Below are positions 2,367 to 48,858 of a stretch of DNA of 64,000 nt, piece by piece. Position numbers and translations under genes: made by a program. This stretch comes from Deltaproteobacteria bacterium (lineage in GTDB: Bacteria; Myxococcota; Kuafuiibacteriia; Kuafuiibacteriales; Kuafuiibacteriaceae): the NCBI GenBank assembly GCA_040218735.1, contig JAVJQW010000023.1, positions 704,001 through 768,000 on the forward strand. The letters run 5' to 3'. The notes below the pieces were generated by a model. That model worked only from the letters and a program-made list of their open reading frames with translations, did no database searches and had not been told where the DNA came from. Each line of letters begins with the position of its first letter. The first letter of the stretch is position 1.

Positions 2367-2379
2367 GCGAACACCTCAT

Positions 2380-2395
2380 CGCAAGGCGCAGGCCA
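2380..2395 (-). promoter_or_regulatory. Putative sigma54 (-24/-12) promoter of the 1323..2366 lipoprotein
   Basis: Minus strand reads TGGCCTGCGCCTTGCG, with GG-N10-GC spacing and TTGC. Confidence 0.6.
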
Positions 2396-2422
2396 ACGGG
2401 GATCCATCGCGCGGCCCGTGAT

Positions 2423-2442
2423 CTGCGGACAGATGTCCGCAG
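2423..2442. promoter_or_regulatory. Perfect inverted repeat, candidate activator or operator site
   Basis: CTGCGGACA-GA-TGTCCGCAG in the divergent intergenic region, upstream of the sigma54-like motif. Confidence 0.5.
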
Positions 2443-2498
2443 CCGCCACGTGTGGGTTTGCCGACGGCAGACCGCAGTTCGTAGGGTAGAATCGAACG

Positions 2499-3701: not shown

Positions 3702-3707
3702 GGCGCT

Positions 3708-4244
3708 CTATCGCGAGGGCCGGTACTCGGCGATCGAGTCCGTCGGGCGTTGCGTCTCGTAGACGCGGGTGAAGTCGACGCGCACCCGGTCGTCCTGCAC
3801 CGCCTTCGCGGTGACGCGATAGAGCCACTCGCTGATGCGCTCGCTGGTCGGGTTGAACGGGAAGACCGCGATCTTCATGCCCCCGGGGAAGCGGGTCTCG
3901 GCGCCTTCGAGCTCCACGTGCGGAAGCTCCAACGTGTCGATGCGCCCGTGCAGCTCGCGGCGGCTCTCGAGGAGCGCGACACCCATCGGCTCGAGCTGCG
4001 CGGCGATGTCGTCGTAGGTGTCGGCGCCGAGCGCGAGCGAGTGATCGAGGAGCTGGTGGCAAGGCCGAAGCACGTTCTTCTTGAGCACGGCGAAGTCCAC
4101 GACGAAGCCCTGCGCGTCGAGCTCGTCCGCCGACACCCCGACCTCGAAGCGCCAGGTGTGCCCGTGGATGTTGATACACGCGCCTGCGTGCCCACGGATG
4201 TGGTGCGCGAAGTCGATGTCGATGCTCTTGGTGATCAGATACAT
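3708..4244 (-). CDS. queD: 6-carboxy-5,6,7,8-tetrahydropterin synthase (PTPS family)
   Basis: FAHH, C-x3-HGH (CINIHGHTW), VVDF, LDH, NPTSE and C-terminal VYET motifs. Confidence 0.85.
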   Translation of the reverse strand: MYLITKSIDIDFAHHIRGHAGACINIHGHTWRFEVGVSADELDAQGFVVDFAVLKKNVLRPCHQLLDHSLALGADTYDDIAAQLEPMGVALLESRRELHGRIDTLELPHVELEGAETRFPGGMKIAVFPFNPTSERISEWLYRVTAKAVQDDRVRVDFTRVYETQRPTDSIAEYRPSR

Positions 4245-4278
4245 CGCGTCGACCGACTAAAGCGGACGAAGCAGGGCC

Positions 4279-5451: not shown

Positions 5452-7634
5452 AGCCCCAGCATCCTCTCCACCAGCAAGCGCGCGGCGTCGGCGCGCGCGG
5501 GGTCGATCCGCTCCACACGTTTCACTTCCTGGATGCGCCCGCGCTTCACGCGCTCCGTCATCTGGCGACGCTCCGGCGCGGTGAACGTGGCAAACGTCCT
5601 GCGCAGCAGCGGCAAGAGCATCCCGAACGCTTCCTCCTCCAGCGACGCGAGCCACCGGTCGAGCACGGCCCACAGCCCTTCGTCGTACACGAGGATCTGC
5701 CCCGACCCGCGCAGGAACCCCTCCGCGAACGCCGCCGCGCGCGCCGGCTCCGCCGCGGTCGACAACGCGTACGACAGACCACGCTCCACGGCGTCGCGGT
5801 CGGTGCGGTTGGCGTCGAAGCTCAAACGCATCGCACGTCCCCTGAGCAGCGCCGGGTACGGCTCGTGCGCCGCCACCTTCGACAGCGCGTCGAACCACAG
5901 ATCGCGGTGCGCCTCCACCAAGCCGATCGCGCCGTGCACGTTCATCACGTGCGTGAACATGTCGTCCGCGGCGTCCTCGTTCAGCCCCGACACCGCCGCT
6001 GGCAAGCCGACCGCCACGCGCGTCACGAAGTCGTCGAGCACGTCCCGCACGACCTCCGTCGACGTCCCACGCACGTCACCGTAGCGAACGAGCTGCGCGA
6101 GCTGCGGGATCGCGGCCATCAGGTGCGTCAGGTCCGCGACCATCGCCGCGCGCGACTCCAACGCTGCGAGCACCTTCGGCACGAGCTCGGGGAGCTCCGC
6201 GAACATCACTTGTCGCAGCAGCACCGTCAGCGCCGACAGCTCTTCGATCTTCTCGACGCGCTCCGCCGCGAGCTTCTCCGCCGCGCTGTCGATCGTCCCG
6301 CCGTACACCCCCGCTTCGATCAACCGGATCGCGAACTCCGGCTCCCAACACAGACGCCACTCCTCTTTGAACGTCCCGAGCCCGGCGCCGCGATCGCCGC
6401 CGACACCCCACGGGACACCGAGCAGCTCGAGGCGCCGGAGCAGCACACTCTTCTCGAGGTCCCGCGGTTTGCGGAGGTCCAGCGTGACGACCTTCTCCGT
6501 CGCCGAAGGTTTCAGCCGCAATCGCTTCTGCTGCTTCGCGAGGTCCCGCATCAGCGGCACCATCGGTGTGTCGCCCGGGACGGACCCGAGCGCCTGCCCA
6601 ACGATGAGCTGCTCGTGCACGAGCTTCAGCGGGAGGACGTTCCCGAAGAGCATCACCGTTTCGATCGCGTCGTTCATCTCGTCGAGCCCGGGGAGCGGCC
6701 GACCGCGCAACGACGCGAGCGCCTCCGCCATCCGTACCGTCTCGATGACGTGCGCGGAGGACACGTCGATCCCCTCCGCGCGCAGCAGCCGCGCGACCCG
6801 CGTGAGCCACGACGCGACGACGTCCTGCGCGTGCGTGAAGAGGTGGTGATACCAACCCGGCGAACGCACGCCCGCGCCGTAACCCGCCGCGACGGAGAGG
6901 CGCCCGTGGGTCCAGGGGATCAGCGTGCACTCGACCTTCTTCTTGGGGAGCCCGCGGAGAATCTGCCGGTCGACCTTCTCGGCCGGGAGCTCCGTCAACG
7001 CGGGCACGTGCCACGCGCCGCACACGACCGCGATCTCTTCGCAGCCCTCCTTCATCGCGGCGCGGATCGTCTTGCGCATGTACGCCTCGCGCATCGACTC
7101 CCGCTTCGACTCCGCCTCCCCCTTCGCGAGGTCCCACGACAGCTCGCGGCGCAGCGAGGTCATCGCGTAGCGGATCGCTTCGAAGATCTCGCGCGCGTCC
7201 TGCCGCTCCTCGACCATGTGCTCCCACCACCGCTCGCTGTCCTCGTAGCCCGCGGCGTTGGCGATCAGCGACAGCGGATCCCCGCGCACGCGCTCCCGCT
7301 TCTCGGGTTTGTCGTCCAGCGCGAGTGAGTGGGTGATCGGCAGATCCATGAACCGCACCGGCACGCCGTGTTCGACGGCGTAGCGCGCGGCGTGAAGCTC
7401 CGGCGAGAACGCGGCGAACGGGTAGTAGACGGCCTCGGTGGGATCGTCCTTCGCGTGGATCAGGATCGCGACCGGCGGCTGCAGGCCCTCGTCGGCGAAC
7501 AGCGGTAACAGCGCGTCGGCGTCCGGCGGCCCCTCGATGAGGACGCAGTCCGGCCTCAGCTGACGAAGCGCCAGCGCGAGGCTCTTGGCGGACCCGGGGC
7601 CGTGATGCCGGATCCCGAAGACGTGGACGCCCAT
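5448..7634 (-). CDS. DUF5682 family protein (YehM-like)
   Basis: GIRHHGPGSA, LIEGP, FSPE, VVCGAWH and GYGAGVRSPGWY motifs. Confidence 0.85.
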   Translation of the reverse strand: MGVHVFGIRHHGPGSAKSLALALRQLRPDCVLIEGPPDADALLPLFADEGLQPPVAILIHAKDDPTEAVYYPFAAFSPELHAARYAVEHGVPVRFMDLPITHSLALDDKPEKRERVRGDPLSLIANAAGYEDSERWWEHMVEERQDAREIFEAIRYAMTSLRRELSWDLAKGEAESKRESMREAYMRKTIRAAMKEGCEEIAVVCGAWHVPALTELPAEKVDRQILRGLPKKKVECTLIPWTHGRLSVAAGYGAGVRSPGWYHHLFTHAQDVVASWLTRVARLLRAEGIDVSSAHVIETVRMAEALASLRGRPLPGLDEMNDAIETVMLFGNVLPLKLVHEQLIVGQALGSVPGDTPMVPLMRDLAKQQKRLRLKPSATEKVVTLDLRKPRDLEKSVLLRRLELLGVPWGVGGDRGAGLGTFKEEWRLCWEPEFAIRLIEAGVYGGTIDSAAEKLAAERVEKIEELSALTVLLRQVMFAELPELVPKVLAALESRAAMVADLTHLMAAIPQLAQLVRYGDVRGTSTEVVRDVLDDFVTRVAVGLPAAVSGLNEDAADDMFTHVMNVHGAIGLVEAHRDLWFDALSKVAAHEPYPALLRGRAMRLSFDANRTDRDAVERGLSYALSTAAEPARAAAFAEGFLRGSGQILVYDEGLWAVLDRWLASLEEEAFGMLLPLLRRTFATFTAPERRQMTERVKRGRIQEVKRVERIDPARADAARLLVERMLGL

Positions 7635-7638
7635 ACCG

Positions 7639-8727
7639 CTAAAGCTGCTCGCGACACGCGCGGTACAGATCGCCCCAGGCCTCGCGCTGCCGCACCACTG
7701 CTTCGAGGTACTCCTTCCACGCGATGCCGTCCTGCACCGGGTCCTTCACCACCGCACCCGTGATGCCGGACGCGATGTCCGAGGGGTGCAGCGTCCCGTC
7801 GCCGAAGTGCGCGGCCAACGCGAGCCCGCTCGACATCACCGAGATGATCTCCGCCGTCGACAGCGTGCCCGTCGGCTGCTTGAGCTTCGTGCGCCCGTCC
7901 TCCGTCTTGCCGCCGCGCAGCTCACGGAAGATCGTGACGACCCGACGAATCTCCTCGAGCGCCGGCTTCTCAGCCGGGATCTCCAACGCACGCCCCAACG
8001 CCGCGACGCGGTCGGCGACGATCGTCACCTCCTCGTCCGCCGTCGCGGGCAGCGGCAACACCACCGTGTTGAAGCGACGCTTCAGCGCGGACGACAGCTC
8101 GTTGACGCCCTTGTCGCGGTTGTTCGCCGTCGCGATCACGTTGAAGCCACGCACCGCCTGCACCTGCGTCCCGAGCTCGGGGATCGGCAGCGCCTTCTCG
8201 GAGAGCACGGTGATCAACGTGTCCTGCACGTCGGAGGGGATGCGCGTCAGCTCTTCGATGCGCGCGAGCGCACCCTCGCGCATCGCGTTCATCACCGGGC
8301 TCGGCACCATCGCGCCCTCGGTCGGCCCCTCGGCGAGGAGCTTCGCGTAGTTCCATCCGTAACGAATCGCGTCCTCTGCGGTGCCGGCGGTGCCCTGCAC
8401 GAGGCGTTTGGAGTCGCCGCTGATCGCCGCCGCGAGGTGCTCCGAAACCCACGACTTCGCGGTGCCCGGCACGCCGTACAACAGCAGCGCGCGGTCCGTC
8501 GCGAGCGTCGCGATGGCGACCTCCATCAGCCGCTGCTGGCCGATGTACTTGGGGCGCACCTCGAAGCCGTTCGCGAGCTTCCCGCCGAGCAGGTACGTCA
8601 GCGTCGCCCACGGCGAGAGCTTCCAGTTCGGCGGACGCTGCCGGTCGTCGATCTTCGCGAGCTCTTCGAGCTCCTCCGCGAACTCGTCTTCGGCCTGACG
8701 TCGGATGAGTTGTTCGTTCATGGTCAT
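7639..8727 (-). CDS. MoxR-type AAA+ ATPase (YehL subfamily)
   Basis: Walker A variant GVPGTAKS, RIEELTR, ATANNRDKGVNELSSALKRRF. Confidence 0.9.
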   Translation of the reverse strand: MTMNEQLIRRQAEDEFAEELEELAKIDDRQRPPNWKLSPWATLTYLLGGKLANGFEVRPKYIGQQRLMEVAIATLATDRALLLYGVPGTAKSWVSEHLAAAISGDSKRLVQGTAGTAEDAIRYGWNYAKLLAEGPTEGAMVPSPVMNAMREGALARIEELTRIPSDVQDTLITVLSEKALPIPELGTQVQAVRGFNVIATANNRDKGVNELSSALKRRFNTVVLPLPATADEEVTIVADRVAALGRALEIPAEKPALEEIRRVVTIFRELRGGKTEDGRTKLKQPTGTLSTAEIISVMSSGLALAAHFGDGTLHPSDIASGITGAVVKDPVQDGIAWKEYLEAVVRQREAWGDLYRACREQL

Positions 8728-10175
8728 TCGTCTTCCTGCAGGGCCGCGGTCATGGCGGCCCGTCGTTCGAGGGCTTCGAGGCAGTCGATGAGCGACTTCT
8801 TCCAGTAGGAGCGCTCCGAGATGTGCATCACGAGTTGTTTCACGGCGGGGAGCGAGCTGGGCGCGAGCTTGCGCCCGGCGTCGCGCAACACGTTGAACGC
8901 GGGGAACTCACCGAGCCGCTCCTCACTCGCGACGAGCTTCCCGATCGCGGCGACCACCTGCTTCGACAGCTCGACGTTCCAAGGGCCATCGACCTTCGGG
9001 AGGTGGAACAGCGCGCGGTGCAGCGACAGGTGCGAGGTCGCGCGCTTCAGCACGCGGAGGAACAGCGCCTCGCGACGCTCCGCCGGGAGCGCGCTCCACA
9101 GCGCGCCGTCCTCTTCGACCTTCTCGAAGATCAGCGCCTCCAACCAGTCGTCGGCGCCGTACGCCTTCGCGGCCGACGCAAAGCCGGGCGCGAGCAAGTT
9201 GCGTTGCTCGCTGCGCAGCAGCGCTTCGACGAGCCGCGGCGCGTTTCGCTCGAACGCGGCTTCGTACGCGGTGGGGGGCGTCGCCTCGAGGATCTGCGTG
9301 AGACACCAGTGGAAGCCGTCGGCGCTGGCGTCCGACTCGACGATCCCGTCGCGGAGCATCGCCTCGTCGATGGCGGTCGGGAGTGTGACCTCCCAACCCT
9401 CCGCCGAGACACGAACGAACTCGAGCGCGCGCTCGATCATGCGCTTCGCGCGGCGTGACTCGGGGAGGCGACCGAGGACCCTCGCAGCGGCGCGACGAAC
9501 CTCCTTCGACTTGTCGTCGAGGCACGACTCCAGGAACGGCTCGTCGTCCATCGTGAGGCCGGTGCGCAGCGTCTCGACCAGCGCCGTGCGCACGCGCGCC
9601 TTCTCGGCGGGGAGCGCCTTTTCGACCGCCGCGCGCGCGCCGGCGGGATCGATCTTGCGCCAGCCCTCGAGCTGCCGAGTCTGCTCTTCCGCGGAGGCGG
9701 CCTCGAACGCCTCCACGTCCGGCGCCTCGGGGCGCGCCAACGCGTAGCGCCACGCTTCGTTGTGGCGCGCGAGCCAACGACCGCGCTCTCCGATCACCGC
9801 GCGCACGCGCTCTGCGAGCTTGGGGTGATGTCGACCGGCTTCGAGGATCGCGGGGAGGAGGCGCGGCGGCAGGCAACGGTCGGCGTTCGCGACGCCGTCG
9901 AGCCACTCGGGCAACAGCTCGCGATGCCGCGGCTCGTAGAGGAACAACGTCCCGTGCGCGACGGCGCGCGCGCCGATGTAACGCTGGTCCTCCGGCGCGC
10001 AGATCTCAGGCCGTGGGGTCTGAGCGTCGTCGGGGAGTCGGCCGGCGTCGCGGGTGATCAGCGTGAGCGCGGCGGCGTCGAGGAGCGCCTTTTCGGCGTC
10101 TTCACCCGCGGACGCATCGCGCTCCACGCCGAGGAGCGCCTGCTTCACGATCTGGTCCCAGGGCTGCGTCACCAC
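8724..10175 (-). CDS. DUF5691 family helical protein
   Basis: ALLG N-terminus, GERGRWLA, DEPFLESCLDDKSKEVR; overlaps both neighbouring genes. Confidence 0.8.
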   Translation of the reverse strand: MVTQPWDQIVKQALLGVERDASAGEDAEKALLDAAALTLITRDAGRLPDDAQTPRPEICAPEDQRYIGARAVAHGTLFLYEPRHRELLPEWLDGVANADRCLPPRLLPAILEAGRHHPKLAERVRAVIGERGRWLARHNEAWRYALARPEAPDVEAFEAASAEEQTRQLEGWRKIDPAGARAAVEKALPAEKARVRTALVETLRTGLTMDDEPFLESCLDDKSKEVRRAAARVLGRLPESRRAKRMIERALEFVRVSAEGWEVTLPTAIDEAMLRDGIVESDASADGFHWCLTQILEATPPTAYEAAFERNAPRLVEALLRSEQRNLLAPGFASAAKAYGADDWLEALIFEKVEEDGALWSALPAERREALFLRVLKRATSHLSLHRALFHLPKVDGPWNVELSKQVVAAIGKLVASEERLGEFPAFNVLRDAGRKLAPSSLPAVKQLVMHISERSYWKKSLIDCLEALERRAAMTAALQEDE

Positions 10176-24047: not shown

Positions 24048-24437
24048 ATGTCGCCAAACATGAAATCGATGTCTTCCATCCTGACTCTCGCACTGGCGGG
24101 GCTCGCTCTCGTCGCGTGCGAAGGGGCGCCGGTCGGCGAGCCGACCGCGGAGGAGACGCTTCGGAGCGTCGACGTCCCTGAAGACTTCGACTTCGCCACG
24201 ACGAAGTCGCTCTACGTCCTCGTCTCCACGGCCGACGCCGGGCGCGTCGAGGTGATCGACGCACGCGGCCGCACCCGGTTTCAGGGGCCGGCGCTCACCG
24301 AGCGACCGACGGTCGTAAGCCTGAGCGTGCCGAGCGCCGACGACCACGTGCGGCTCCGGCTGACGAACGGGCGCGGCGTCGAGCGCATCGCCGTCGCGCA
24401 GATCGTCGACGACGTCGCCGAGTTCCGCTTCGACTGA
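24048..24437 (+). CDS. Small lipoprotein, paralogue of 41015..41398
   Basis: Lipobox LALVAC. VDVPEDFDFATTKS and terminal AEF match the 41015 protein. The true start may be 24060 or 24069. Confidence 0.75.
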   Translation: MSPNMKSMSSILTLALAGLALVACEGAPVGEPTAEETLRSVDVPEDFDFATTKSLYVLVSTADAGRVEVIDARGRTRFQGPALTERPTVVSLSVPSADDHVRLRLTNGRGVERIAVAQIVDDVAEFRFD

Positions 24438-24470
24438 TCAGCGCACCTGATCAGCGCACCTGATCAGCGC
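24434..24470. repeat. 13-bp tandem repeat (CTGATCAGCGCAC, about 2.8 copies) between convergent genes
   Basis: Sequence reads ctgatcagcgcac ctgatcagcgcac ctgatcagcgc. Confidence 0.85.
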
Positions 24471-26080
24471 GATCGGCCGACGTCGACCGTCATCGACACG
24501 GACACGTCGCCCGTCGCGACGCGCGCTTCGAGGCGCGCGCCGTGCTCTGCCCACCACGCCGCCGCGTCGTTCGGCGTCCACGTTCCGGTCTCATCCGCAC
24601 AACCATCGATCGCCTTCGCGAGCTCGAAGGCGGAAGCCGGACGATCCTCGGGCGCCTTCGCCAAGCACTGCATCAACAGCGCCTCGAGCGTCGGGGACAG
24701 CGGGGCGTCGCGGTGCTTCGAGATCGGATCCGGCGTCTTGTGCAGGTGGTCGCTGCAGACCTGAACGACGCTGTCGCCCGGGAACACCGGTCGCCCCGTG
24801 AGCAGGAAGTAAGCGACGGCTCCGACCGCGTACAGATCACTTCGCGCGTCGACTTCGTCCGGTGAGCGGATCGTCTCGGGCGACATGTACTGCGGCGTGC
24901 CGCTGATTACGTTGGTCTGCGTGAGGCTCACGCCGCCATGCGTCTGGATCTCCTTCACCAGGCCGAAGTCCAACAGCGTCACGTGATCGTTCGCGCCGCC
25001 GAAGCGGTGCGGCAGCGAGACCATGATGTTACCGGGTTTGATGTCGCGGTGGATCAAGCCGACGCCGTGCGCCTCGATCAACGCGCCGCAGATCTGTAGC
25101 AGCAAGTGACGCACGCGCGCCTGGGGTTGCGGTCCGCCGACCCGGACGATGCGATCGATGTCGGCGCCCGCGAGCAGCTCCATCGCGTAGTAGAAGACGC
25201 CGTCCGAGGTGTGGCCGTAGTCGAAGATGGTGACGGTGTTCGGGTGCGCGAGCTTGGCCGTCAGCTGCACCTCGTTCTCGAACCGCTTCAGCGCCTTCTC
25301 CCCCGCGCGCTCCGGACGGAGCAGCTTCACCGCGGTGGGGCGCCGAAGGAAGGCGTGATGCGCGCGGTAGACCTCACCCATCCCGCCCTCCCCGAGCTTG
25401 GCTTCGAGGCGGTACTGCCCGAGCTGAAGCGCGTCGCGCACCTTGCGGCGCAGGCCGTAGATGACCCACGACGCCGACGTGGCGATGGCGGCGGTGAGGA
25501 GCCACCAGACCCCCTGGGTGATCGTCAGCCAGAGCGCGATCGTGTGACCGTCCTCTTGGAAGTTTTGGGGGTCGATCGCGGACCACCTCGCAGCGTCGAT
25601 CTTCGAGAAGGCGATGTAGTTGCCGATCAGCATCGCAGCGCCGATGGCCACCGACAACGCGAGCGTCCGCCGACCGGAGCTGGGCACGAACACCGAGCGC
25701 GCCAGCAACGCGTACGTCAGGGCGACCAGCACGATCATGTCCGGCCGCGCGATGAGGGGGATGAACGTACCCATCGCGATCAGCGCGATGCTCCCGGTGA
25801 GGACCCCCGTCGTCTCCAGCCGACGGAGCCCTGTCATCGACAGGTCGGTGTGTCGCGCGATGGCCCAGACGACCAGGAAGTTGAGCGAGGCGGCGCCGTG
25901 GAGCGGGTAGGAGAGGTTGGTGATCTCCGGCCAGGCCTCGACGAGGATGATGATGATCGTGCGGTAGAGGAAAAACGCACCGATCAGCGCCGTCGAGACG
26001 AGCGCGGCGAGCTCCACCCGCCGCTTCAGGAACGCCCGTTCCTCGTCGGTCGACGAGGTCTCGATCCCCGGGGCGCTCAA
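24464..26080 (-). CDS. Multi-TM Ser/Thr protein kinase
   Basis: About six N-terminal TM helices, then LGEGGMGEVY, AVK, HRDIKPGN, DFG and GTPQYMSPE. Confidence 0.92.
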   Translation of the reverse strand: MSAPGIETSSTDEERAFLKRRVELAALVSTALIGAFFLYRTIIIILVEAWPEITNLSYPLHGAASLNFLVVWAIARHTDLSMTGLRRLETTGVLTGSIALIAMGTFIPLIARPDMIVLVALTYALLARSVFVPSSGRRTLALSVAIGAAMLIGNYIAFSKIDAARWSAIDPQNFQEDGHTIALWLTITQGVWWLLTAAIATSASWVIYGLRRKVRDALQLGQYRLEAKLGEGGMGEVYRAHHAFLRRPTAVKLLRPERAGEKALKRFENEVQLTAKLAHPNTVTIFDYGHTSDGVFYYAMELLAGADIDRIVRVGGPQPQARVRHLLLQICGALIEAHGVGLIHRDIKPGNIMVSLPHRFGGANDHVTLLDFGLVKEIQTHGGVSLTQTNVISGTPQYMSPETIRSPDEVDARSDLYAVGAVAYFLLTGRPVFPGDSVVQVCSDHLHKTPDPISKHRDAPLSPTLEALLMQCLAKAPEDRPASAFELAKAIDGCADETGTWTPNDAAAWWAEHGARLEARVATGDVSVSMTVDVGRSR

Positions 26081-35167: not shown

Positions 35168-36223
35168 TCAGCGCTTTACGGCTTCGAGGACGTCGACGAT
35201 CTCTCGCACGCGCGGGTACCGACGCCTCGCGTCCGGCTCGAGCGCGCGCATCAACACCGGATCCACGCGACGGTCGAGCGCCTTGTTCTTCTTCGACGGC
35301 TCCGCGAAGCGGCCGAGCGGCAGCTCACCCGTGAACATCTCGTAGAGGAGCACGCCGTAGGAGTAGACGTCGGCGCGCTGGTCGACGCGGCCCGCGTCCT
35401 GGCGCTGCTCGGGCGCCATGTAGTTCACGGTGCCCATCGAGATCCGCGAGCCGGTGAGGTTCACGTAGGAGCGGTCGCTGTAGAGGATGTCCGCGAGGCC
35501 GAAGTCGCAGATCTTCGCGATGTGGCCCTCGGGGCCGCCGTCGGCGAGGAGCACGTTCTCCGGTTTGAGGTCGCGGTGCACGACGCCCTTGCCGTGCGCG
35601 TAGTCGAGGCCGCGGCCGATCTGCACCGCGAGGTCGAGCGCCTGCGACAGTCGCAAGCTACGTTGCGAGAGCATCCGCCGGAGCGTCGGGCCGTCGACGT
35701 ACTCCATCACGAAGTACCAATTGTTCTCGACGTTGCCCTGGTCGATGATCGAGACGACGTTGTGGTGCGCGAGCGCCGCCAGCGCCGCCGCCTCGCGCTT
35801 GAACCGCAGGATGAACTCCGGCTGGCTCACGAGGTCCGAGCTCATGAGCTTCAGCGCCACGGGGCGGTCGAGGGATATCTGCTTGGCGCGGTAGACGGTG
35901 CCCATCGCGCCGCGACCGAGCACCGTGCCGACCTCGTACCCCGCGAGCATCGTCCCGAGCGCGATGTCGTTCTGCGCGGTGCGGTGCTGCTTGGTCGCCG
36001 GGCGCGGCGGCCGCTGCGACTCGTTGCCCCCGGGCGCTCCGCCCACGGGCTTGATCTTGCCGCGCTCGAGATCTTGTCCGTACTGCGTGTCGTTGCGGAC
36101 GACCGCGAACTTGATCCCGCAGCGCCGGCAGCGAACCTTTTGACCGGAGACGTAGATCCCCACGTCGTACTTCGCGCTGCAGTTCGGACAACGCTGAACG
36201 ACTTGCTTCCGCGCCAAGACCAT
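35168..36223 (-). CDS. Cytoplasmic Ser/Thr kinase with an N-terminal zinc ribbon
   Basis: CPNC...CRRC, LGRGAMGTVY, VALK, HRDLKPEN, DFG and YMAPE. Confidence 0.92.
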   Translation of the reverse strand: MVLARKQVVQRCPNCSAKYDVGIYVSGQKVRCRRCGIKFAVVRNDTQYGQDLERGKIKPVGGAPGGNESQRPPRPATKQHRTAQNDIALGTMLAGYEVGTVLGRGAMGTVYRAKQISLDRPVALKLMSSDLVSQPEFILRFKREAAALAALAHHNVVSIIDQGNVENNWYFVMEYVDGPTLRRMLSQRSLRLSQALDLAVQIGRGLDYAHGKGVVHRDLKPENVLLADGGPEGHIAKICDFGLADILYSDRSYVNLTGSRISMGTVNYMAPEQRQDAGRVDQRADVYSYGVLLYEMFTGELPLGRFAEPSKKNKALDRRVDPVLMRALEPDARRRYPRVREIVDVLEAVKR

Positions 36224-38200
36224 CTAGCTCCCTGTGGCGCTGTCCGCGCCTTCCTGCAACCGCACGGCCTCGTACACGTTGACCTCTTGCTCCTTGCCCT
36301 TCACTTGGCGGGTCCCCAGATAGCGCGCCTCGATCCGATCCGCAATGAGGGCCTGGGTCCGGTCGGAGATGATCACCTGGTCGCCCTCGGCGAGGCCGCA
36401 CAGGCGCGACGCGGTGTTCACCGTATCGCCGATCACCGTGTACTCGAGCCGTCGCTTCGACCCCATGTACCCCGCGACCAGCTGCCCGGTGTTGACGCCG
36501 ACGCCCATGCGAATCGGGTCCGCGTTGCGCAGGGCGCGCTCGTCGTTGAGGTCGCGAATCGCGTCGCGGAACTCGATGGCCGCGGCGACGCAGTTGTACG
36601 TCGACTCCTCGACGTCGTCGCCCTCGAGCGTGCCCCAGGTCGCCATCAACGCGTCGCCGATGAACTTGTCGAGCACGCCGTGCCGCGTGAACACGATCTC
36701 CACGAGCCGCTCGAAGTACTCGTTCAGCAGATCGACGACCTCCTGCGGCCCCCCCGCCGTCTCCGACAGCGAAGTGAACCCGCGGATGTCACAGAAGACG
36801 ACCGACGCTTCCGTCTCACGCCCGCCCTTCTGAATGGGCTGGCCCTTCCCCTGGACCATCTCCTCCACCACGTGCGGCGGCAGGAAGCGGTTCAGCTGAC
36901 CGCGCGTCTTCGCCTCTTCCTCGATCTGCCGAACGAGGCGCGCGTTCTCGATCGCGATCGCGGTCTGCGTCGCGATCGCCTTGAGCACCTGCAGGTCCTT
37001 CTCGGTGAACGCGCCGACGCGCTCGCGCGAGTCGAGGTGCATCAACCCGAGCACCTTGTCGTGCGCCACCAACGGCACACACATCGCGGCGCGAATGCCC
37101 TGCGCGATGATCGACTGCGAGCCCGAGAACCGCGGGTCGAGGAACGCGTCCGACGACAACACCGACGCACGCTCCTGCAGCGCGCCGTTCACGATCGTCG
37201 AGGACAGCAGAATCTCCTGCTTGTCGTCGCCGCCGTCCTTCTGCCGGACGGTGTGCGGCACGAGCGTGTTGGTGTCCGCGTCGACCAACATGATGACCGC
37301 GTTGTCCGCGGGGAACATCGAGAACACGACGTCCAGCGTGCTCTGCAACAGCTTCGACAGGTCCGTGGTCAGGCCGATGCGCGCCAGCTCGTGCGACAGG
37401 CGGAGCTTTTCGTAGTCGCGCTTGAGGACCTCGACGTCGTGCACCTCGGTGACGGGCTTGAAGTCCTCTTCCTCCTCCTCCTGGAGCTTCGCGTGGATGT
37501 GCGTGGAGCCCGCCGGGTCCTGCGGGAGGATCGTGACGAGGTCGCGCACGCTCGTGCGCGGGTCGTCCGGCACCTGCATTACAAACTGCAGACGCATCGA
37601 GCCGAGGAGCAGCTCGTCGCCGTCCTTCATGTGCGCTTCGGTGATGCGGCGCGTGTTGAGGTACGTGCCGTTCGACGAGTTCAGGTCGCGGACCCACCAC
37701 TCGCTCCCGCGCAGCTCGATGATCGCGTGCTCCTTCGAGATCTCGCGGTCGTTGAGGCGGATGTTGTTCTTCGGGTGACGCCCGACGCTGTTGACCTCGT
37801 CCAACACGAAGTCGGTCTCGAGGCCGTCCGGGCTGACGTAGAGGATCTTCGCGAGCGGCGTGTCGTCGTCGTTCGTCTTGTCGCGTGCCTTGGGCACGAT
37901 GACCGCCGCGGCGACCGGCCCCGACCGACGACGGCGGCGCCCCGCCCTGAACGGCGCGGTCGCCTCGCGCTCCCCGTCGGGCGTCCGCGGGACCCCGCCC
38001 GGCGGCGTGCCCGGGTTGGACGCGTGACGCTGCGGCGTCTGCTGCCGCGGCACCTGGGGCGGCGGCGTCGTGCTCCCGCCCCCCGCCTGAATCGCCGCAG
38101 CGCCGAATGGTTTACGGCAGTGCTGGCAATAGACGATCGCGGTCGTCGGCGGACGCTGAAATTCGTTCAGAGCACCGCAGTGCGGACACCAAGCGCGCAT
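36224..38200 (-). CDS. Zinc ribbon-FHA-GAF-class III adenylate cyclase
   Basis: CPHC...CQHC, FHA GR..SKEHA..SSNGT, GAF AMCVPL, cyclase FCDIRGFT, KFIGD and GDTVNTASRL. Confidence 0.9.
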   Translation of the reverse strand: MRAWCPHCGALNEFQRPPTTAIVYCQHCRKPFGAAAIQAGGGSTTPPPQVPRQQTPQRHASNPGTPPGGVPRTPDGEREATAPFRAGRRRRRSGPVAAAVIVPKARDKTNDDDTPLAKILYVSPDGLETDFVLDEVNSVGRHPKNNIRLNDREISKEHAIIELRGSEWWVRDLNSSNGTYLNTRRITEAHMKDGDELLLGSMRLQFVMQVPDDPRTSVRDLVTILPQDPAGSTHIHAKLQEEEEEDFKPVTEVHDVEVLKRDYEKLRLSHELARIGLTTDLSKLLQSTLDVVFSMFPADNAVIMLVDADTNTLVPHTVRQKDGGDDKQEILLSSTIVNGALQERASVLSSDAFLDPRFSGSQSIIAQGIRAAMCVPLVAHDKVLGLMHLDSRERVGAFTEKDLQVLKAIATQTAIAIENARLVRQIEEEAKTRGQLNRFLPPHVVEEMVQGKGQPIQKGGRETEASVVFCDIRGFTSLSETAGGPQEVVDLLNEYFERLVEIVFTRHGVLDKFIGDALMATWGTLEGDDVEESTYNCVAAAIEFRDAIRDLNDERALRNADPIRMGVGVNTGQLVAGYMGSKRRLEYTVIGDTVNTASRLCGLAEGDQVIISDRTQALIADRIEARYLGTRQVKGKEQEVNVYEAVRLQEGADSATGS

Positions 38201-40864: not shown

Positions 40865-40907
40865 ATCGCCCCATCCTGGCCCACGGGCCGGTGCCCCAGA
40901 GATCCGT

Positions 40908-40933
40908 TGTCACAGTTGCGCAAGAGCGTGACA
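40908..40933. promoter_or_regulatory. Candidate operator upstream of the lipoprotein/LruC operon
   Basis: TGTCAC-N14-GTGACA inverted repeat with an internal TTGCGCAA palindrome. Confidence 0.4.
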
Positions 40934-41014
40934 CTCTCGATAGTTATCTTCCGGTTTTGAGCGACGGATTCCGACGCGTGAAATCGGGACCGCGAGCGCT
41001 CGGGGAACACATCC

Positions 41015-41398
41015 ATGTCGAAATCCATCTACCTGTGGGCCGTGCTGGCCGTCGCCGCGATCGCGGCCTGCAGCAACGGCCCCGCCGACACCACGCCCAC
41101 CGACAACCTCGATCGGGTCGAGATCCCGGAAGACTTCAGCTTCGTGACGAAGAAGTCCGTCGCCCTGAAGGTCCGCGCCGCCGCGAGCGTCGTCGAGAAC
41201 GGCGCCGCGCTCGAGGTCAAACGCGAGGACGGCCGTATCCTGTACATGGGTCCGATCCAGGCCGGGCAGGACGTCGACCTGAAGCTCAACCTCCCCACCA
41301 AGGACGAAGCGGTCACCGTGACGCTCCAGTCCAACGATACCGCCCAGTCGGCGCGTGTGCTGATCGACTCGGGTGAAGCGACGGCGGAGTTCGAATGA
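41015..41398 (+). CDS. Small lipoprotein coupled to the LruC-domain gene
   Basis: Lipobox AIAAC, VEIPEDFSFVTKKS; ATGA overlap with the next gene. Confidence 0.8.
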   Translation: MSKSIYLWAVLAVAAIAACSNGPADTTPTDNLDRVEIPEDFSFVTKKSVALKVRAAASVVENGAALEVKREDGRILYMGPIQAGQDVDLKLNLPTKDEAVTVTLQSNDTAQSARVLIDSGEATAEFE

Positions 41399-44300
41399 TG
41401 AAGCGGCTCAGCGGACTCCTCCTCCTCTCGACCCTCGTCGCCACACCCGCGTGGGCGTTCGACGCCGACGGCGACGGCACCAAGGACGCCCTCGACGCGT
41501 TCCCCTGCGAGCCCAACGCGGTGGGCGCCGCGTTCTATCCGGCGCAGGGCGACCACGGGATGCTGATGTTCGAGGACCTGTGGCCGAACTACGGCGACAA
41601 GGACTTCAACGACGCGGTCATCGCGTACAACTACATTCACAAGCTCGATGCGGCCGGCGACGTCGTGCAGATCAAGCTGACGCTCAACGTGCTCGCGATC
41701 GGCGCCGAGCTGCGCAGCGGCCTCGGCCTGCGCCTCCCCGTCCCGCGCAACGCGGTGGCGGGCGTGTCGCTCTCGCGCATCACGCACCACAAGGACAAAC
41801 ACACCTCGGTCAACCTCGCCCCGTCGACGAGCGACACCGAGCTCGTGGTCCGCATCTCCAACGACCTGCGTGAGTTCTTCGCCGACTTCGGATCCGCGGT
41901 GAACACCGTCGACATCTACGACCGGCTGCACGGCGAGACCGTCGAGGTCACCATCAGCTTCTGGCAGCCCACGACGGTCGACCTGAACGAGGCCCCCTAC
42001 GACCTGTTCCTCTTCCGCACCGACAACCCGTCGCACGAGCTGCACCGCCCCGAGTACCGCGGCACCGCGGCGATGGACACGGCGCTGTTCAACACCGGCG
42101 ACGACGGCTCCACCGCCACGCGCGCGTTCACGTCGATCCACGGCCTCCCGTTCGCGCTCGACTTTCCGACGCTCGTCCCCTACCCGGCCGAGGGCGTCCG
42201 CATCGACACCCTCTTCCCGAACATCACCGCGTGGGCCTCGTCGGGCGGCGCGACGAACCAGGACTTCTACACGAACGGCGTCCTCGCCTCCGCGATCTTC
42301 AAGGACGCGAAGGGCTACGGTCCTATCACCCCGTCGTTCATCGGGCCGGACCACCTCCCCGCCGAGACCGGCTGCATCCAGGACTGGGGCGTCGCCGTGG
42401 AGTGGGGCTCCGTCGCGAGCCGCTACTCCAAGAGCGCCGTCGTCGACGCCGCGGGCATCGCGACGGTCACCGGCTACACACGCAGCGCGTTCACCGGCCA
42501 GACCTACGCGGGTGGGCTCGACGCCTTCGTCGCGCGCTACGACACCACCAACGGCAACCTGATCTGGGCCACGCAGTTCGGCAGCAGCGGCGACGACGCC
42601 GGACGTGACATCGTCGCGGACGGCGCGCACGTGTACGTGGTCGGCGACGTCGAAGGTGCGATCCACGGCCAAACCCATGCGGGCGGCGCGGACGCCTTCG
42701 TCACCAAGCTCGACAACACCGGCGCCGTGGTGTGGACGCGCCTCTTCGGCGGCGGCGCGAACGAGCTCGGCTACGGCATCACCGTCGACGCCGCGGGCAA
42801 CGTGTACATCGCCGGCGGCTCGACCTCGGCCTCGCTCCCCGGCGGCACCTCGCCCGGCAACACGCCGGCGAGCTTCCTCGTGAAGTTCGACGCGGACGGC
42901 ACCCGCCTGTGGACGCAGCACTACGTCACCGACGCCGCCAACGGCACGAGCTACAGCTACTCGACCGACGTCACCGTCGACCCGACCTCGCAGGACCTCT
43001 ACGTCGTCGGCACCGAGCGACGCTTCACGCAGTCGGCCAACGCGGCGGTGAACCAGTTCCTCGCGCGCCACAGCGCGGCGACGGGCGCGCAGACTTGGAT
43101 CGAGCACATCGGCGACCACGGCTACCGCGCGAGCGCGACCGACTTCCGCTACAGCTACGCGTACGGCGTCACCGCCGACTCGCTCGACGGCAGCGCCTAC
43201 GTCGTCGGCTACTGGTACGGCGGCCCCGCGGTCAGCGCGTGGGCCGGCTACACCCGCGCGACGGGCGACGCCTCCCCGGACGCAACCATCGCGAAGTTCG
43301 CGAACAACGGCGCCTCGCGCTGGCAGTACGCGATCGCTTCGACCGACGGCCAGGAAGACTTCGCGTGGGCCGTGCTCGCCGACGGCGTCGGCGGCTCCGT
43401 CTACGTCACCGGCCGCACCGCGGGCTCGCTCCCGGGGCAGGCGAACGTCGGCGCGACCGACTACTTCATCCGCTCGTACGCCTACGACGGCACGCAGCGC
43501 TGGACGGTCCAGAGCGGCGGCTACGCGTTCGACTCGGGGCACGTCGCGGCCGTCCACAACACGTCACAGACCACCGGCGACGTGTACGTCGTGGGCAACG
43601 CGACGGCGGTGCACAGCAACGACTGGAGCACGTGGGACATCATCCTCACCCTGCTCGACCGCGACGACGGCTCGCTCCTCTCGAGCAACGCCGCGCGCCG
43701 CCTCGGCTGGGTGACCGGCACGCCCGGGATGTGCTCGACGACGTGCGGCCAGGGCACGGCACCGTGGACCGTCACGTGCGTGCGCGCCGACGGCTCGACC
43801 GCGCCCGACAGCGAGTGCTCTGGCCTCAAGCACCCGGGCCCCGCGGCGGACTGCTGGGACTACTCGTTCTGCACGCAGACCTGGCAGACCGAGGTGTGGT
43901 CGTCGTGCAGCACGAGCTGCGGCGCCGGAACGCAAACGCGCGCGGTCTACTGCGAGCGCGACGACGGCATCATCCTCCCGGACTCGGACTGCGCGGGCGA
44001 GCCGCGGCCGAACGAGAGGCAGACGTGCACCGACCTGTCGGAGTGTGAGTACGACTGGGCGCTCGGCGCCTGGAGCGTGTGCAGCGTGAATGGCTGCGCG
44101 ACGGGCACGCAGGGGCGCGCGGTCTCGTGTCAGCGGAGCGACGGCGCTTCGGTGGCGGATTCGTTCTGCCCGGTGCCGCGTCCGACGACGACGCAGACCT
44201 GCGGCGGCGCGAACTGCACGCCGACGACCTGCGCGGACCTCCTCGCCAACAACAACACGCGGAGTGGCGAGTACACGATCTTCCCGAATGGCTCCGGCAC

Positions 44301-44742
44301 CTCCGGCGTGGGTGTGTATTGCGACATGACCTCGAGCGGCGGCGGCTGGACGAACCTCGACCTCGCCAACGACATCGTTCACCTGGAGAACGGCCACGCG
44401 ATCCACTGCAGCGGCGGTCTGACGACGACCGCGAACAGCGTGACCTGCGCGGGGCCGTACTTCGACAACGACACGTCGAAGCTGCTCTACCAGTTCGGCT
44501 GCGGCGGCAACGATCGCAGCGCCGACTACCTGCTGGACCACGCCGCCACGATGCTCGGCCACAACGACGCGCCCGTGCTCGGCTACGCCGGCATCGCGCA
44601 GGACGGCGCAAGCATCGCGAGCGGGAGTGAGTACTGCTACGCGAGCGGCGCGGTGTACCCGTGGCACGCTCCGCAGTGCGCGCCGTACAACGCGGAAGGC
44701 AACGGCAGCTGCAAGCTGACGACGTTCACGCTGTCGCGGTAG
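41395..44742 (+). CDS. Secreted LruC/DUF4842-domain protein with SBBP propeller, TSP1 repeats and a fibrinogen-like C-terminal domain
   Basis: Signal peptide ending in AWA, DADGDG..DAFP, FEDLWP..GDKDFND, VDAAGNVYIAG repeats, WSSCSTSCGAGTQTRAVYC-type repeats, and TCAD..SGEYTI..VYCDMTSSGGGWT. Confidence 0.85.
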   Translation: MMKRLSGLLLLSTLVATPAWAFDADGDGTKDALDAFPCEPNAVGAAFYPAQGDHGMLMFEDLWPNYGDKDFNDAVIAYNYIHKLDAAGDVVQIKLTLNVLAIGAELRSGLGLRLPVPRNAVAGVSLSRITHHKDKHTSVNLAPSTSDTELVVRISNDLREFFADFGSAVNTVDIYDRLHGETVEVTISFWQPTTVDLNEAPYDLFLFRTDNPSHELHRPEYRGTAAMDTALFNTGDDGSTATRAFTSIHGLPFALDFPTLVPYPAEGVRIDTLFPNITAWASSGGATNQDFYTNGVLASAIFKDAKGYGPITPSFIGPDHLPAETGCIQDWGVAVEWGSVASRYSKSAVVDAAGIATVTGYTRSAFTGQTYAGGLDAFVARYDTTNGNLIWATQFGSSGDDAGRDIVADGAHVYVVGDVEGAIHGQTHAGGADAFVTKLDNTGAVVWTRLFGGGANELGYGITVDAAGNVYIAGGSTSASLPGGTSPGNTPASFLVKFDADGTRLWTQHYVTDAANGTSYSYSTDVTVDPTSQDLYVVGTERRFTQSANAAVNQFLARHSAATGAQTWIEHIGDHGYRASATDFRYSYAYGVTADSLDGSAYVVGYWYGGPAVSAWAGYTRATGDASPDATIAKFANNGASRWQYAIASTDGQEDFAWAVLADGVGGSVYVTGRTAGSLPGQANVGATDYFIRSYAYDGTQRWTVQSGGYAFDSGHVAAVHNTSQTTGDVYVVGNATAVHSNDWSTWDIILTLLDRDDGSLLSSNAARRLGWVTGTPGMCSTTCGQGTAPWTVTCVRADGSTAPDSECSGLKHPGPAADCWDYSFCTQTWQTEVWSSCSTSCGAGTQTRAVYCERDDGIILPDSDCAGEPRPNERQTCTDLSECEYDWALGAWSVCSVNGCATGTQGRAVSCQRSDGASVADSFCPVPRPTTTQTCGGANCTPTTCADLLANNNTRSGEYTIFPNGSGTSGVGVYCDMTSSGGGWTNLDLANDIVHLENGHAIHCSGGLTTTANSVTCAGPYFDNDTSKLLYQFGCGGNDRSADYLLDHAATMLGHNDAPVLGYAGIAQDGASIASGSEYCYASGAVYPWHAPQCAPYNAEGNGSCKLTTFTLSR

Positions 44743-46959: not shown

Positions 46960-48858
46960 TCAGTCCACGATCGGAACGGAGTCTTCCTCGACGACATGGG
47001 TGTTCTGTTCGTCCACGACGAGCCCACCCGGCCCTTCGTCGACGCCCAGCGGAACCGCTTCGACCGCGGGGGGCGGCGCGGCCTCGGGTTCGGTGATCTC
47101 GGCGACCGGCGGCGGCGCCTCCGACCGTTCGGACCGGTCCGACCGTTCCGATCGCGTCCGGGTGCGCGACCGACGACGACGCGGCGGCGGCGCCTCTTCG
47201 ACCTTCTCGGTCGGCGTCGGCTCGATGCGGGTCGGCTCGACACGCTCCGCGGGGAGCGGCACCAACGCCGCGTGCAGGTCGACGTTGCGCTCGCGCACCT
47301 TCGTCGTGAGCGTCTGCTTCTCGTAGCCGTCGAGCTCGAGCTCGAACGACTTCGTCTGCCCGATCGCGTCGGCGCCCACGCGGTGGACCAGCGGCGTCTC
47401 ACCGATCTTGCGCCCTTCGGCGCGCACCGTCGCGCCCGCCGGCGACGTCGTCAGCCGCACCTCGACCTCGGCGGGCGCAGGCGCGGCGGGCGTGTTCACC
47501 GCGATCGGCTTGGCCGGCTCGGGGCGAAGCGCCCGCGTCGCCGCGTAGCCGACGAAGCCCACGAGCAGCAAGAGCGGCACGACCAACCAAACTCTGCGCG
47601 ACCGTCGCGGCTGGACGAACGAGACGTCCATATCGTCGGACGGCGTGGGGCTCGGCGTCGAGCTCGGGAGCGGCGGCGGCGTCATCGTCAGATCGACGGA
47701 GACCGATGCCTCCGAGGGCATCGACAAGTCCGGCGGTGCGGTGAGCCCGGGCGGCACGGAGAAGTCGGGGGGCAGCGAGAGGTCGGGGGGCGCGCTCGTG
47801 TGCGATGCGCCGAGCGTCGACAGCTGCGACTCAGTCTGCACGCTGACGCCGGTCATGAGGCGGTACGCCGCCTTGAGGTCGGCGATGACCTCGTCCATCG
47901 ACTGGTACCGATCGTCGGGGCGCTTCTCCATGCACCGCCGAATCACGACCTCCAGCTCGGGCGCGACGACGACGTCCGGGACGACGTCCGCGAAGGTCGG
48001 CGGGGCGTCGCGCAGGTGCTGTTCGAGGATCTCGACGCTGTTCGCGCCGACGAACGGTGGCCGCCCCGCGACCATGTTGAACATGATGATTCCGAGCGAA
48101 TAGACGTCCGTGCGCGGGTCGACCGGCTTGCAGCGTATCTGCTCCGGCGCCATGTACCGCGGCGAACCGAGCCAGGTCCCGGAGCGCGTGAGCTCCATGT
48201 TGCCCTCGGTCTCGTCGTCCTCGAAGACCTTCACGAGTCCGAAGTCGAGGACCTTCACGAAGTCGCCGTCCTGGTCCTCGTCGCGGAGGAGCATGACATT
48301 TCCCGGCTTGAGATCGCGGTGCACGATGCCGGTCTTGTGTGCGGTGCGGAGCGCGCGACAGATCTGCAGCCCGATCTGCGCGGTGCGTTCGCTCCCGAGG
48401 CGTATCTGCTGGGAGATGATGCGCGAGAGCGGCTCCCCGGCGAGGTACTCCATCGCCATGAAGAGCTCGCCGTCGTCGGCTTCCCCGTAGTCGTGGACGG
48501 TGACGATGTGCCGGTGCACGAGCTTCGCGCAGGTCGACGCCTCCAAGAAGAAGCGCTGCCGGAACTCGTCGTCGTTCGGCTTCGAGGTCAGCACTTTGAC
48601 GGCGACCTCGCGTCCGAGCGGCAGCTGCGTGGCGAGATAAACCCGGCCCATCCCCCCCTTCGCGACCATGCGATCCAGGCGATACCGACCGGCGAGAAGC
48701 TCTCCGACGCGGTGCTCGGGCTTCGCCGTAACCTGTTCGCTCACGAGCTGGGATTGGGTGACGTCCTCGGGTGCGACCGAACCTGGTCGCTCGGCCGGGA
48801 CGCGCTCATCCGTAGACGCGGGCCGCGTAGCCTGCTCGTTTTCCGCGGGCCCGCTCAT
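46960..48858 (-). CDS. Transmembrane Ser/Thr kinase with a PEGA domain
   Basis: KGGMGRVY, VAVK, HRDLKPGN, DFG, YMAPE, TM helix and TSPAGATV..GETP. Confidence 0.92.
   Translation of the reverse strand: MSGPAENEQATRPASTDERVPAERPGSVAPEDVTQSQLVSEQVTAKPEHRVGELLAGRYRLDRMVAKGGMGRVYLATQLPLGREVAVKVLTSKPNDDEFRQRFFLEASTCAKLVHRHIVTVHDYGEADDGELFMAMEYLAGEPLSRIISQQIRLGSERTAQIGLQICRALRTAHKTGIVHRDLKPGNVMLLRDEDQDGDFVKVLDFGLVKVFEDDETEGNMELTRSGTWLGSPRYMAPEQIRCKPVDPRTDVYSLGIIMFNMVAGRPPFVGANSVEILEQHLRDAPPTFADVVPDVVVAPELEVVIRRCMEKRPDDRYQSMDEVIADLKAAYRLMTGVSVQTESQLSTLGASHTSAPPDLSLPPDFSVPPGLTAPPDLSMPSEASVSVDLTMTPPPLPSSTPSPTPSDDMDVSFVQPRRSRRVWLVVPLLLLVGFVGYAATRALRPEPAKPIAVNTPAAPAPAEVEVRLTTSPAGATVRAEGRKIGETPLVHRVGADAIGQTKSFELELDGYEKQTLTTKVRERNVDLHAALVPLPAERVEPTRIEPTPTEKVEEAPPPRRRRSRTRTRSERSDRSERSEAPPPVAEITEPEAAPPPAVEAVPLGVDEGPGGLVVDEQNTHVVEEDSVPIVD

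Follow-up and report, generated by a model that had tools for sequence, protein, structure and literature searches.

The 64,000-nucleotide stretch of a Deltaproteobacteria bacterium genome analysed here, called the window in the following, encodes on its forward strand two overlapping genes, one for the 127-residue lipoprotein P0001 and one for P0002, a secreted protein of 1115 amino acids that starts with an LruC domain (Table 1). The TGA stop codon of the P0001 gene (41396-41398) shares bases with the ATG start codon of the P0002 gene (41395-41397), leading to an ATGA overlap in the context gaATGAtga. The G+C content at third codon positions (GC3) is 0.91 for the P0001 open reading frame (ORF) and 0.96 for that of P0002 and matches the coding DNA of the genome. 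Together, the two genes form an isolated unit: the gene of a PlsB-like acyltransferase ends upstream at position 40864, and a convergent TPR gene is located downstream. Since the layout of a small lipoprotein gene next to an LruC gene was found two more times in the same genome and also in other genomes, the arrangement is not a product of chance.

Table 1. Features of the P0001/P0002 locus and of a P0001 paralogue in the window (positions of the window)
Feature	Position	Strand	Basis or remark
Small lipoprotein gene P0001, detached LruC N-terminal module by profile comparison	41015..41398	+	ORF of 127 aa plus stop; profile family
P0001 signal peptide and lipobox, residues 1-19, Cys19	41015..41071	+	Read from sequence
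P0001 motif V-E-I-P-E-D-F-S-F-V-T, residues 35-45	41117..41149	+	Alignments A2, A4
P0001 seven-strand beta-sandwich, residues 46-127	41150..41395	+	AlphaFold2 model
P0002 gene, LruC-headed secreted multidomain protein	41395..44742	+	ORF of 1115 aa plus stop; family matches
P0002 Sec-type signal peptide, residues 1-21, ...PAWA/FD, no lipobox	41395..41457	+	Read from sequence
P0002 LruC domain with Asp-rich lead-in, residues 22-330	41458..42384	+	TIGR04456 part at nt 41560-42273
P0002 SBBP-type beta-propeller, ~residues 335-765, approximate boundaries	42397..43689	+	PF06739, NF047494
P0002 three thrombospondin type 1 repeats, ~residues 770-942	43702..44220	+	PF19030
P0002 fibrinogen-like C-terminal domain, residues 943-1115	44221..44739	+	NF040941, PF00147
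Conserved upstream island (40906-40919, 40929-40960), promoter- or operator-like	40906..40960	+	Alignment with L044
Orphan small-lipoprotein paralogue, 129 aa, no LruC gene nearby	24048..24437	+	32% identical to P0001; lipobox and motif

The signal peptide of P0001 terminates in the lipobox AAIAAC, which is followed by a linker rich in proline, threonine and aspartate and by the motif VEIPEDFSFVT. The lipobox cysteine is invariant in the 24-row alignment A4, which comprises members from Myxococcota and Bacteroidota. Within the motif, P38, F41, F43 and T45 are invariant in the alignment of the stand-alone family (A2), and F41 is also invariant and T45 nearly invariant in A4. P0001 thus has the layout Cys-linker-P/x-x-x-F-x-[FW]-x-T ahead of its first strand, with the cysteine at residue 19 and the motif at residues 38-45. 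In an AlphaFold2 model (m70a7e185a67d; mean predicted local distance difference test (pLDDT) of 81), the seven-strand sandwich is predicted with confidence (pLDDT blocks of 86-96), and the region preceding it, including the motif, is not ordered and lacks secondary structure in the single chain (pLDDT blocks of 70-86). Searches of this model with Foldseek and VIA-align returned only common Ig-like or transthyretin-like sandwiches, with a top Z of 9.3; the matches to TssJ (Z 7.7, root-mean-square deviation 2.6 over 82 residues) and to a secretin pilot (Z 7.5) lie in the range of common folds. P0001 matches no family in Pfam or NCBIfam. A structure search of the Atlas pointed to DUF4841 (PF16129; TM 0.62), but this lead was not confirmed: at E <= 1, PF16129 matched neither P0001 nor any other of the 24 sequences in A4, and a genome search gave no match even in the controls. 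Polyubiquitin entries retrieved from the PDB with A4 were rejected as sums of repeats of ~7 bits each.

The small protein belongs to a sizeable family. When 1.84 billion representatives were searched with a 16-member profile, 369 clusters were matched with E <= 0.001, 140 of them with E <= 1e-10, and 148 of the 150 matches listed are 98-170 residues long. The two long matches, P0060 and P0103, were rejected as fusions, since they are Big_6 Ig-repeat proteins that sum weak matches. A lipobox is visible in nearly all short matches, and, judged from these sequences, the small protein is nearly always a stand-alone protein. No member of P0001's own cluster bears a name in public records; P0007 (125 aa), a relative of the orphan paralogue in the window, is recorded as 'hypothetical protein'.

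P0002 starts with the signal peptide MMKRLSGLLLLSTLVATPAWA/FD, which contains no lipobox because the first cysteine of the protein is residue 38. LruC homology begins at residue 22 in alignment A3, straight after the predicted cleavage site, with an Asp-rich lead-in, and is followed by matches to TIGR04456 (LruC_dom; residues 56-293, 175.9 bits, cut-off 36) and PF16130 (DUF4842; residues 89-292, 119.9 bits, cut-off 22). The start of the domain carries the motif F-E-D-x-W-P ... D-x-D-F-N-D. E60, D61, D68, D70, N72 and D73 of P0002 are invariant in A3 and in the 20-row alignment A6, and P0002 possesses all residues that are invariant in the latter (E39, D40, W42, P43, D47, D49, N51 and D52 in alignment numbering). 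By family model, P0002 is therefore a member of the LruC domain-containing proteins, and a near-identical protein bears this name ('LruC domain-containing protein') in public records. The lipoprotein signal that the founding Leptospira proteins carry in the same chain is absent from P0002; the lipobox is located on P0001. Downstream of the LruC domain, the propeller is indicated by PF06739 at residues 446-481 and by NF047494 at residues 410-606, the latter below its cut-off. The three TSP1 stretches match PF19030 (TSP1_ADAMTS) with 96.8 bits, and the C-terminus matches NF040941 (GGGWT_bact; residues 945-987, 45.6 bits, cut-off 30) and PF00147 (Fibrinogen_C; 31.3 bits). The 28 cysteines of P0002 follow this division: Cys38 and Cys327 flank the LruC domain, none is found in the propeller, each TSP1 repeat has six, and the fibrinogen-like part has eight. 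At E <= 1, P0002 matched no Pfam or NCBIfam family for sorting or anchoring.

Positions 43702-44739 of the forward strand thus encode, in a bacterial protein, three TSP1 repeats followed by a fibrinogen-like YCD...GGGW domain, a combination more familiar from animal extracellular proteins. Fibrinogen-like ends are also found on the paralogues encoded on contigs 21 and 64 and on a protein of a Byssovorax metagenome-assembled genome (MAG; L041). The invariant E-D...D-x-D-x-N-D motif in the N-terminal half of the P0002 LruC domain additionally gave a sub-threshold match to PF13448 (DUF4114; 22.1 bits, cut-off 27), and PMC9109919 describes DUF4114 as a module that binds sugars in a Ca-dependent manner. 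When the PDB was searched with the A6 profile, no lectin was matched and 3oqq was the sole match; a PA-IIL-like lectin site was not confirmed by this sequence search.

Several lines of evidence relate P0001 to the front of larger LruC proteins. A scan with an LruC-domain alignment, in which one genome per species was considered, yielded 76 loci, mostly from Bacteroidota, and the typical protein at these loci is a lipoprotein of 660-850 residues with DUF4114 in the middle of the chain and LruC at the C-terminus. Residues ~25-140 of such single-chain lipoproteins align with the small protein. When the mature parts of 16 Myxococcota-type stand-alone proteins were compared to 54 fused N-termini, hhalign returned a probability of 97.3% and an E value of 2.5e-11 over 99 columns; likewise, the stand-alone family (A2) aligned with the full-length fused proteins (A5) with a probability of 96.5% and an E value of 8.1e-10 over 127 columns, covering positions 3-136 of 678. 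Among the 83 LruC ORFs at the 76 loci, 50 are fused, 21 are split (18 by rule and three on inspection) and 12 show neither form, three of which are cut by the DNA end and three of which have weak matches within the same ORF; the assignment was made with a profile of the mature part, 17 of whose 24 rows come from the same loci and are not independent of them. In a collection of 5.8 billion proteins, all 14 longer proteins matched by the broader A4 profile carry PF13448 and PF16130, whereas the narrower, four-row A1 profile found no longer relatives. At the level of sequence profiles, P0001 corresponds to the first ~130 residues of the single-chain LruC lipoproteins, encoded as a gene of its own. 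The preliminary description of this locus had implied such a homology (borne out here with E values between 8e-10 and 2.5e-11) and had stated that LruC proteins are usually single lipoproteins with a similar N-terminal region, which agrees with the 50 fused ORFs.

The pairing of the two genes is conserved within and across genomes. The genome that contains the window (11.6 Mb) encodes four LruC genes and four relatives of the small protein, and three of the latter are located directly upstream of three of the former: in the window, on contig 21 and on contig 9. The contig 21 pair has the same architecture as that in the window, with an overlap of one nucleotide; in the contig 9 pair, the genes are separated by 17 nucleotides, and the large protein consists of LruC and ~1500 residues of Gly-rich repeats. 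The fourth LruC gene (L113; G000:C64:42105-44570, minus strand) encodes a protein with a fibrinogen-like C-terminus and no lipobox, and has no small neighbour; its product carries an N-terminal extension of ~220 residues that belongs to no known family, and L035 and L122 are of the same type. The fourth small paralogue is the orphan in the window, which is preceded by the gene of a membrane GDSL-like hydrolase and followed by a convergent Ser/Thr kinase gene. Its orthologue in a sister genome (G011:C907) is likewise an orphan. Since both genomes have one partnerless LruC gene of the contig 64 type, the orphan and this LruC protein may pair in trans. The GDSL-like protein was considered as partner of the orphan and rejected, as it lacks any LruC-like region and its gene is not retained next to the orthologue.

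In seven Myxococcota genomes, 15 of the 18 small genes adjoin an LruC gene, so that the gene pair, for which the preliminary description had proposed a survey, is indeed found in other members of the phylum. Nine of these 15 small genes are located upstream of a gene with an N-terminal LruC domain, whereas the other six (in G179 and G297) come directly after a gene whose LruC domain is C-terminal; in all 15 adjacent pairs, the small gene is thus next to that end of the large gene which encodes LruC. Exceptions to this rule are L045 and the split pairs of Bacteroidota, in which an upstream small gene is combined with a C-terminal LruC domain. Among 401 sampled genomes of the phylum, seven contain the small gene and 12 contain LruC; the seven are a subset of the 12, and the 389 genomes lacking LruC yielded no small gene. 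As the sampled genomes are related, this co-occurrence is not a statistical test. A metagenome scan with alignment A1 yielded five further loci, three with LruC downstream, one at a contig edge and one orphan. The spacing in 11 pairs with the small gene ahead of LruC is -4, -4, -4, -1, -1, 7, 12, 18, 41, 51 and 101 nucleotides. A lipobox is present on all small proteins examined, and all their partners carry a Sec-type signal peptide free of a lipobox. According to these sequence comparisons, the small domain, stand-alone or fused, is exclusively associated with LruC, orphans notwithstanding. A Byssovorax sp. MAG contig (L041, positions 510-8861) contains a tandem array of two small lipoprotein genes and four LruC genes, whose products are ~630-690 amino acids long with fibrinogen-like ends; the third and fourth LruC genes are without a small gene of their own. 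The clearest exception to pairing is formed by the LruC-headed proteins L119 and L120 of genome G004, with open frames of 1252 and 1080 amino acids.

Split pairs also exist in Bacteroidota. There, the small gene ends with TAA or TAG, and the large gene starts 15-30 nucleotides later with its own ATG; the large proteins possess a Sec-type signal peptide and no lipobox. Read-through of the stop codon was considered for five loci, at which both frames are the same and one stop apart, and was rejected because of the separate ATG and signal peptide 15-30 nucleotides downstream. As far as can be read from the DNA, the split pairs of Bacteroidota are true two-gene units. The distances between small proteins correlate with those between the neighbouring LruC domains (Mantel r = 0.81 for 30 pairs and 0.80 for the 20 Myxococcota-type pairs; 0 of 2000 permutations in each case), which shows, for the sequences compared, inheritance and duplication as a unit rather than contact. 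In a quick, unrooted maximum-likelihood tree of 94 LruC domains, a fully supported branch separates two clades. The clade that holds P0002 comprises 29 rows, of which 21 are split, eight unpartnered and none fused; the other one comprises 65 rows, of which 49 are fused, 10 split and six unpartnered, with three separate supported split groups. At least four changes between the fused and the split state are needed on this tree, which indicates that such transitions happened repeatedly. As the tree is unrooted, it does not separate fission from fusion for the lineage of P0001 and P0002, and the earlier wording that 'the gene has split' is not supported by a clade that is devoid of fused members.

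The passengers of the LruC proteins differ between pairs, as the preliminary description had supposed for the cargo. SBBP, TSP1 and fibrinogen-like domains are carried by the partners in the window and on contig 21, Gly-rich repeats by the contig 9 partner, a fibrinogen-like passenger by the Byssovorax MAG partner and SBBP repeats by the partner in G387. The G179 partner consists of a right-handed beta-helix with a C-terminal LruC domain, and the G005 partner carries five PKD domains and RHS/YD repeats. A minimal pair is encoded by Anaeromyxobacter oryzae, in which a 127-residue lipoprotein is combined with an LruC-only partner of ~340 residues. The G005 protein (L036/L033; G005:C5, ~4094600-4102000) deserves attention in itself: it is LruC-headed, more than 2300 residues long, combines the five PKD domains with RHS/YD-shell repeats and is preceded by a small lipoprotein gene. 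It may be a membrane-tethered polymorphic-toxin-like protein.

Compared to a single-chain family member, P0001 brings exactly what P0002 lacks, namely the lipid anchor and the front domain, and this suggests that the two genes might together be equivalent to one LruC-family lipoprotein. P0001 would contribute the lipid anchor and, behind a short linker, the P-x-x-F-x-F-x-T motif together with an Ig-like beta-sandwich. P0002 would be exported via Sec without an anchor of its own, with the LruC domain first and the adhesin- or lectin-type passengers behind it. P0001 would then bind the LruC domain non-covalently, thereby keeping P0002 on the outer membrane, and the overlap or short distance between the genes would help to produce both chains together. 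We assign a probability of roughly 55% to this reading, in which the lipoprotein serves as an adaptor with a lipid anchor, attaches to LruC and so retains P0002 at the outer membrane; here, we infer the binding, the docking site, and the membrane and its face. LruC is the candidate docking site because it is the only element common to all partners. The preliminary description had gone further and proposed surface display. LruC of Leptospira is placed on the inner side of the outer membrane in the introduction of PMC9901810, which argues against assuming display on the surface, and the claim is thus not supported as worded.

Further findings weigh against P0001 as an adaptor for P0002. The seven genomes contain 29 LruC-domain matches, of which only 15 are flanked by a small gene; two of these genomes, G297 and G011, are fragmented assemblies. 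In G004, which is 88% complete, two LruC-headed genes with Sec signals are present and the small gene was not found. Conversely, small genes occur as orphans in the window (24048-24437), in G011:C907, in G297:C670 and in L114. In the fused proteins, ~250 residues including DUF4114 separate the N-terminal domain from LruC, so that the two need not touch within the single chain. Finally, neighbouring genes that are simply inherited together would also be adjacent and diverge in a correlated manner.

Instead of being a permanent anchor, the small lipoprotein could be a transient helper, i.e., a pilot or chaperone that assists the LruC protein in folding, in sorting or in passing the outer membrane, and after whose action the LruC protein is released or holds itself. 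Adjacency, coupling and co-diversification fit such a helper equally well, and LruC proteins without a partner do exist. The fold of P0001 resembles that of small outer-membrane lipoproteins serving larger machines (TssJ and the secretin pilot, at the common-fold Z values given above), and the sub-threshold DUF4114-like acidic motif might enable LruC to hold glycans by itself, given the Ca-dependent sugar binding described for DUF4114 (PMC9109919). We nevertheless regard a transient role as unlikely, because in 50 of the 83 LruC ORFs this domain is permanently and covalently built into the mature lipoprotein, which favours a structural function.

The two proteins might also not touch at all and be co-expressed parts of one envelope function, for instance at a common polysaccharide or surface, with the fused forms joining independent modules. 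The long spacer between both domains in fused proteins, the orphan small genes and partnerless LruC genes, and the lack of order of the motif region in the single-chain model are all in line with this idea. However, P0002 would be left without means to stay on the cell, the small domain is fused only to LruC-type proteins (14 of 14), the small gene is found only in LruC-bearing genomes, and in the 15 adjacent pairs it lies at the LruC-coding end of the large gene, be this the 5' or the 3' end. Independent action of the two proteins is therefore considered quite improbable.

Small genes beside polymorphic toxins are often immunity genes, and the PKD and RHS/YD repeats of the G005 partner could be taken to mean that the small protein inhibits a harmful passenger or confers immunity to it. 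This explanation is very improbable, since the small protein is a lipoprotein encoded upstream of the large gene, is conserved beside toxin-free partners, including the LruC-only protein of A. oryzae, and is fused to LruC in Bacteroidota. That the split is an artefact or a pseudogene, in which a frameshift or nonsense mutation has broken up a formerly undivided gene, is suggested by the ORF overlap and nothing else and is already refuted by the own start codon and complete signal peptide of P0002, the recurrence of the layout in paralogues and other genomes, the 369 clusters of the stand-alone family, and a ratio of non-synonymous to synonymous substitutions (dN/dS) of about 0.4 (0.29/0.72) between the P0001 gene and its orthologue.

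If P0001 acts as an anchoring adaptor, this would explain how anchorless giant adhesins and RHS-type proteins are retained on the cell, and the pair could serve as a two-part tag for the display of proteins on diderm envelopes. The N-terminal module of LruC lipoproteins is a family of its own, which is separable as a gene and then stays beside the LruC-coding end of diverse secreted proteins; from this constancy stems the concrete idea that LruC is the part that meets the lipid-anchored module. It is tempting to extend this idea to a general, portable docking pair of small lipoprotein and LruC, which would serve in two or more phyla and whose LruC tag could sit at the front or at the rear of the cargo, although we regard this extension as tentative and rather doubtful. 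Were it true, the cargoes would include lectin-like adhesins, PKD-RHS proteins, beta-helices and, from the literature, ice-binding proteins, and the pair would be for diderms what cohesin-dockerin or C-terminal sorting tags are elsewhere. The minimal pair of the cultured A. oryzae offers a convenient test system.

Upstream of the pair, the conserved island listed in Table 1 is located in the 150-nucleotide gap between the PlsB-like gene and the P0001 gene. At 40906-40960 and 40999-41008, the window and the orthologous locus L044 have the near-invariant blocks GTTGTCACAGTTGC and then CACACTCTCGATAGTnATCTTCCGnTTTTGA and a ribosome-binding-like site, GGGGAAC, in common, and the flanks have diverged; the island at 40906-40960 is the sole long near-invariant stretch in the upstream alignment of the two orthologous pairs. 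A scan for the sigma-70 consensus gave no promoter-like match at the locus, and no terminator and no Rfam family were detected there. The blocks may represent a promoter or an operator. Within 25 kb, the window further contains Ser/Thr kinase genes at 24464-26080, 35168-36223 and 46960-48858 and an FHA-GAF-adenylate/guanylate cyclase gene at 36224-38200, all on the minus strand; large Myxococcota genomes typically contain such genes in close proximity.

Proteins with LruC/DUF4842 are frequent among Bacteroidota, in Leptospira and in part of the Myxococcota, and to our knowledge, no function is known for them. The published work retrieved by a full-text search consists of studies on Leptospira antigens and one survey of ice-binding proteins, and the available sections of these papers (PMC9901810, PMC8280789 and PMC9957290) mention neither a partner lipoprotein nor a split form. 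The Leptospira proteins LruC and LIC13086, which founded the family name, are outer-membrane lipoproteins with LruC/DUF4842 (PMC9901810, PMC8280789); compared by the descriptions in these sources, they differ from P0001 and P0002 in having the lipid anchor and the LruC domain in one chain. The ice-binding proteins carry a C-terminal DUF4842 on an unrelated passenger, at the place where other members have a PEP-CTERM sorting motif, and no partner lipoprotein is mentioned in the sections available (PMC9957290). The only solved structure that matches the LruC profile is that of a 'putative lipoprotein' with a chain of 435 residues (PDB 3oqq; E 7.5e-20). Its first ~105 residues matched the small-domain profile with an E value of 0.31, and it therefore probably lacks the small domain; the similarly sized L084 has DUF4114 at this place. 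The TssJ-TssM pair is alike in its way of working only: a small outer-membrane lipoprotein with a transthyretin-like sandwich docks a non-lipidated partner. It has no sequence relation to P0001 and P0002, its similarity is at the Z of common folds, and the partners are unrelated.

The closest known relatives are found in Bacteroidota. Single-chain LruC lipoproteins of ~675 amino acids, such as P0175 ('LruC domain-containing protein [Cyclobacterium qasimii]'), contain lipobox, motif, beta-sandwich and LruC/DUF4842 like P0001 and P0002 taken together; however, they are one polypeptide with DUF4114 between the parts, a C-terminal LruC domain and no large passenger, whereas in the window the front module is encoded by its own gene, and the LruC domain is located at the N-terminus, ahead of ~800 residues made up of other domains. 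The Bacteroidota split pairs (L100, L081, L078, L055, L094, L104, L109, L102, L064 and L108) resemble the window more closely, in that a lipoprotein of ~125-150 amino acids is encoded directly upstream of an LruC protein with a Sec signal, but their partners are ~480-500 amino acids long, have an N-terminal region of ~200 residues, a C-terminal LruC domain and no large passengers, and fall into the other clade of the tree. Compared to these systems, the new elements described here are the Myxococcota branch, the large and varied passengers, the placement of LruC at the N- or C-terminal end of the cargo, with the small gene changing sides accordingly, and the co-occurrence of both across the phylum.

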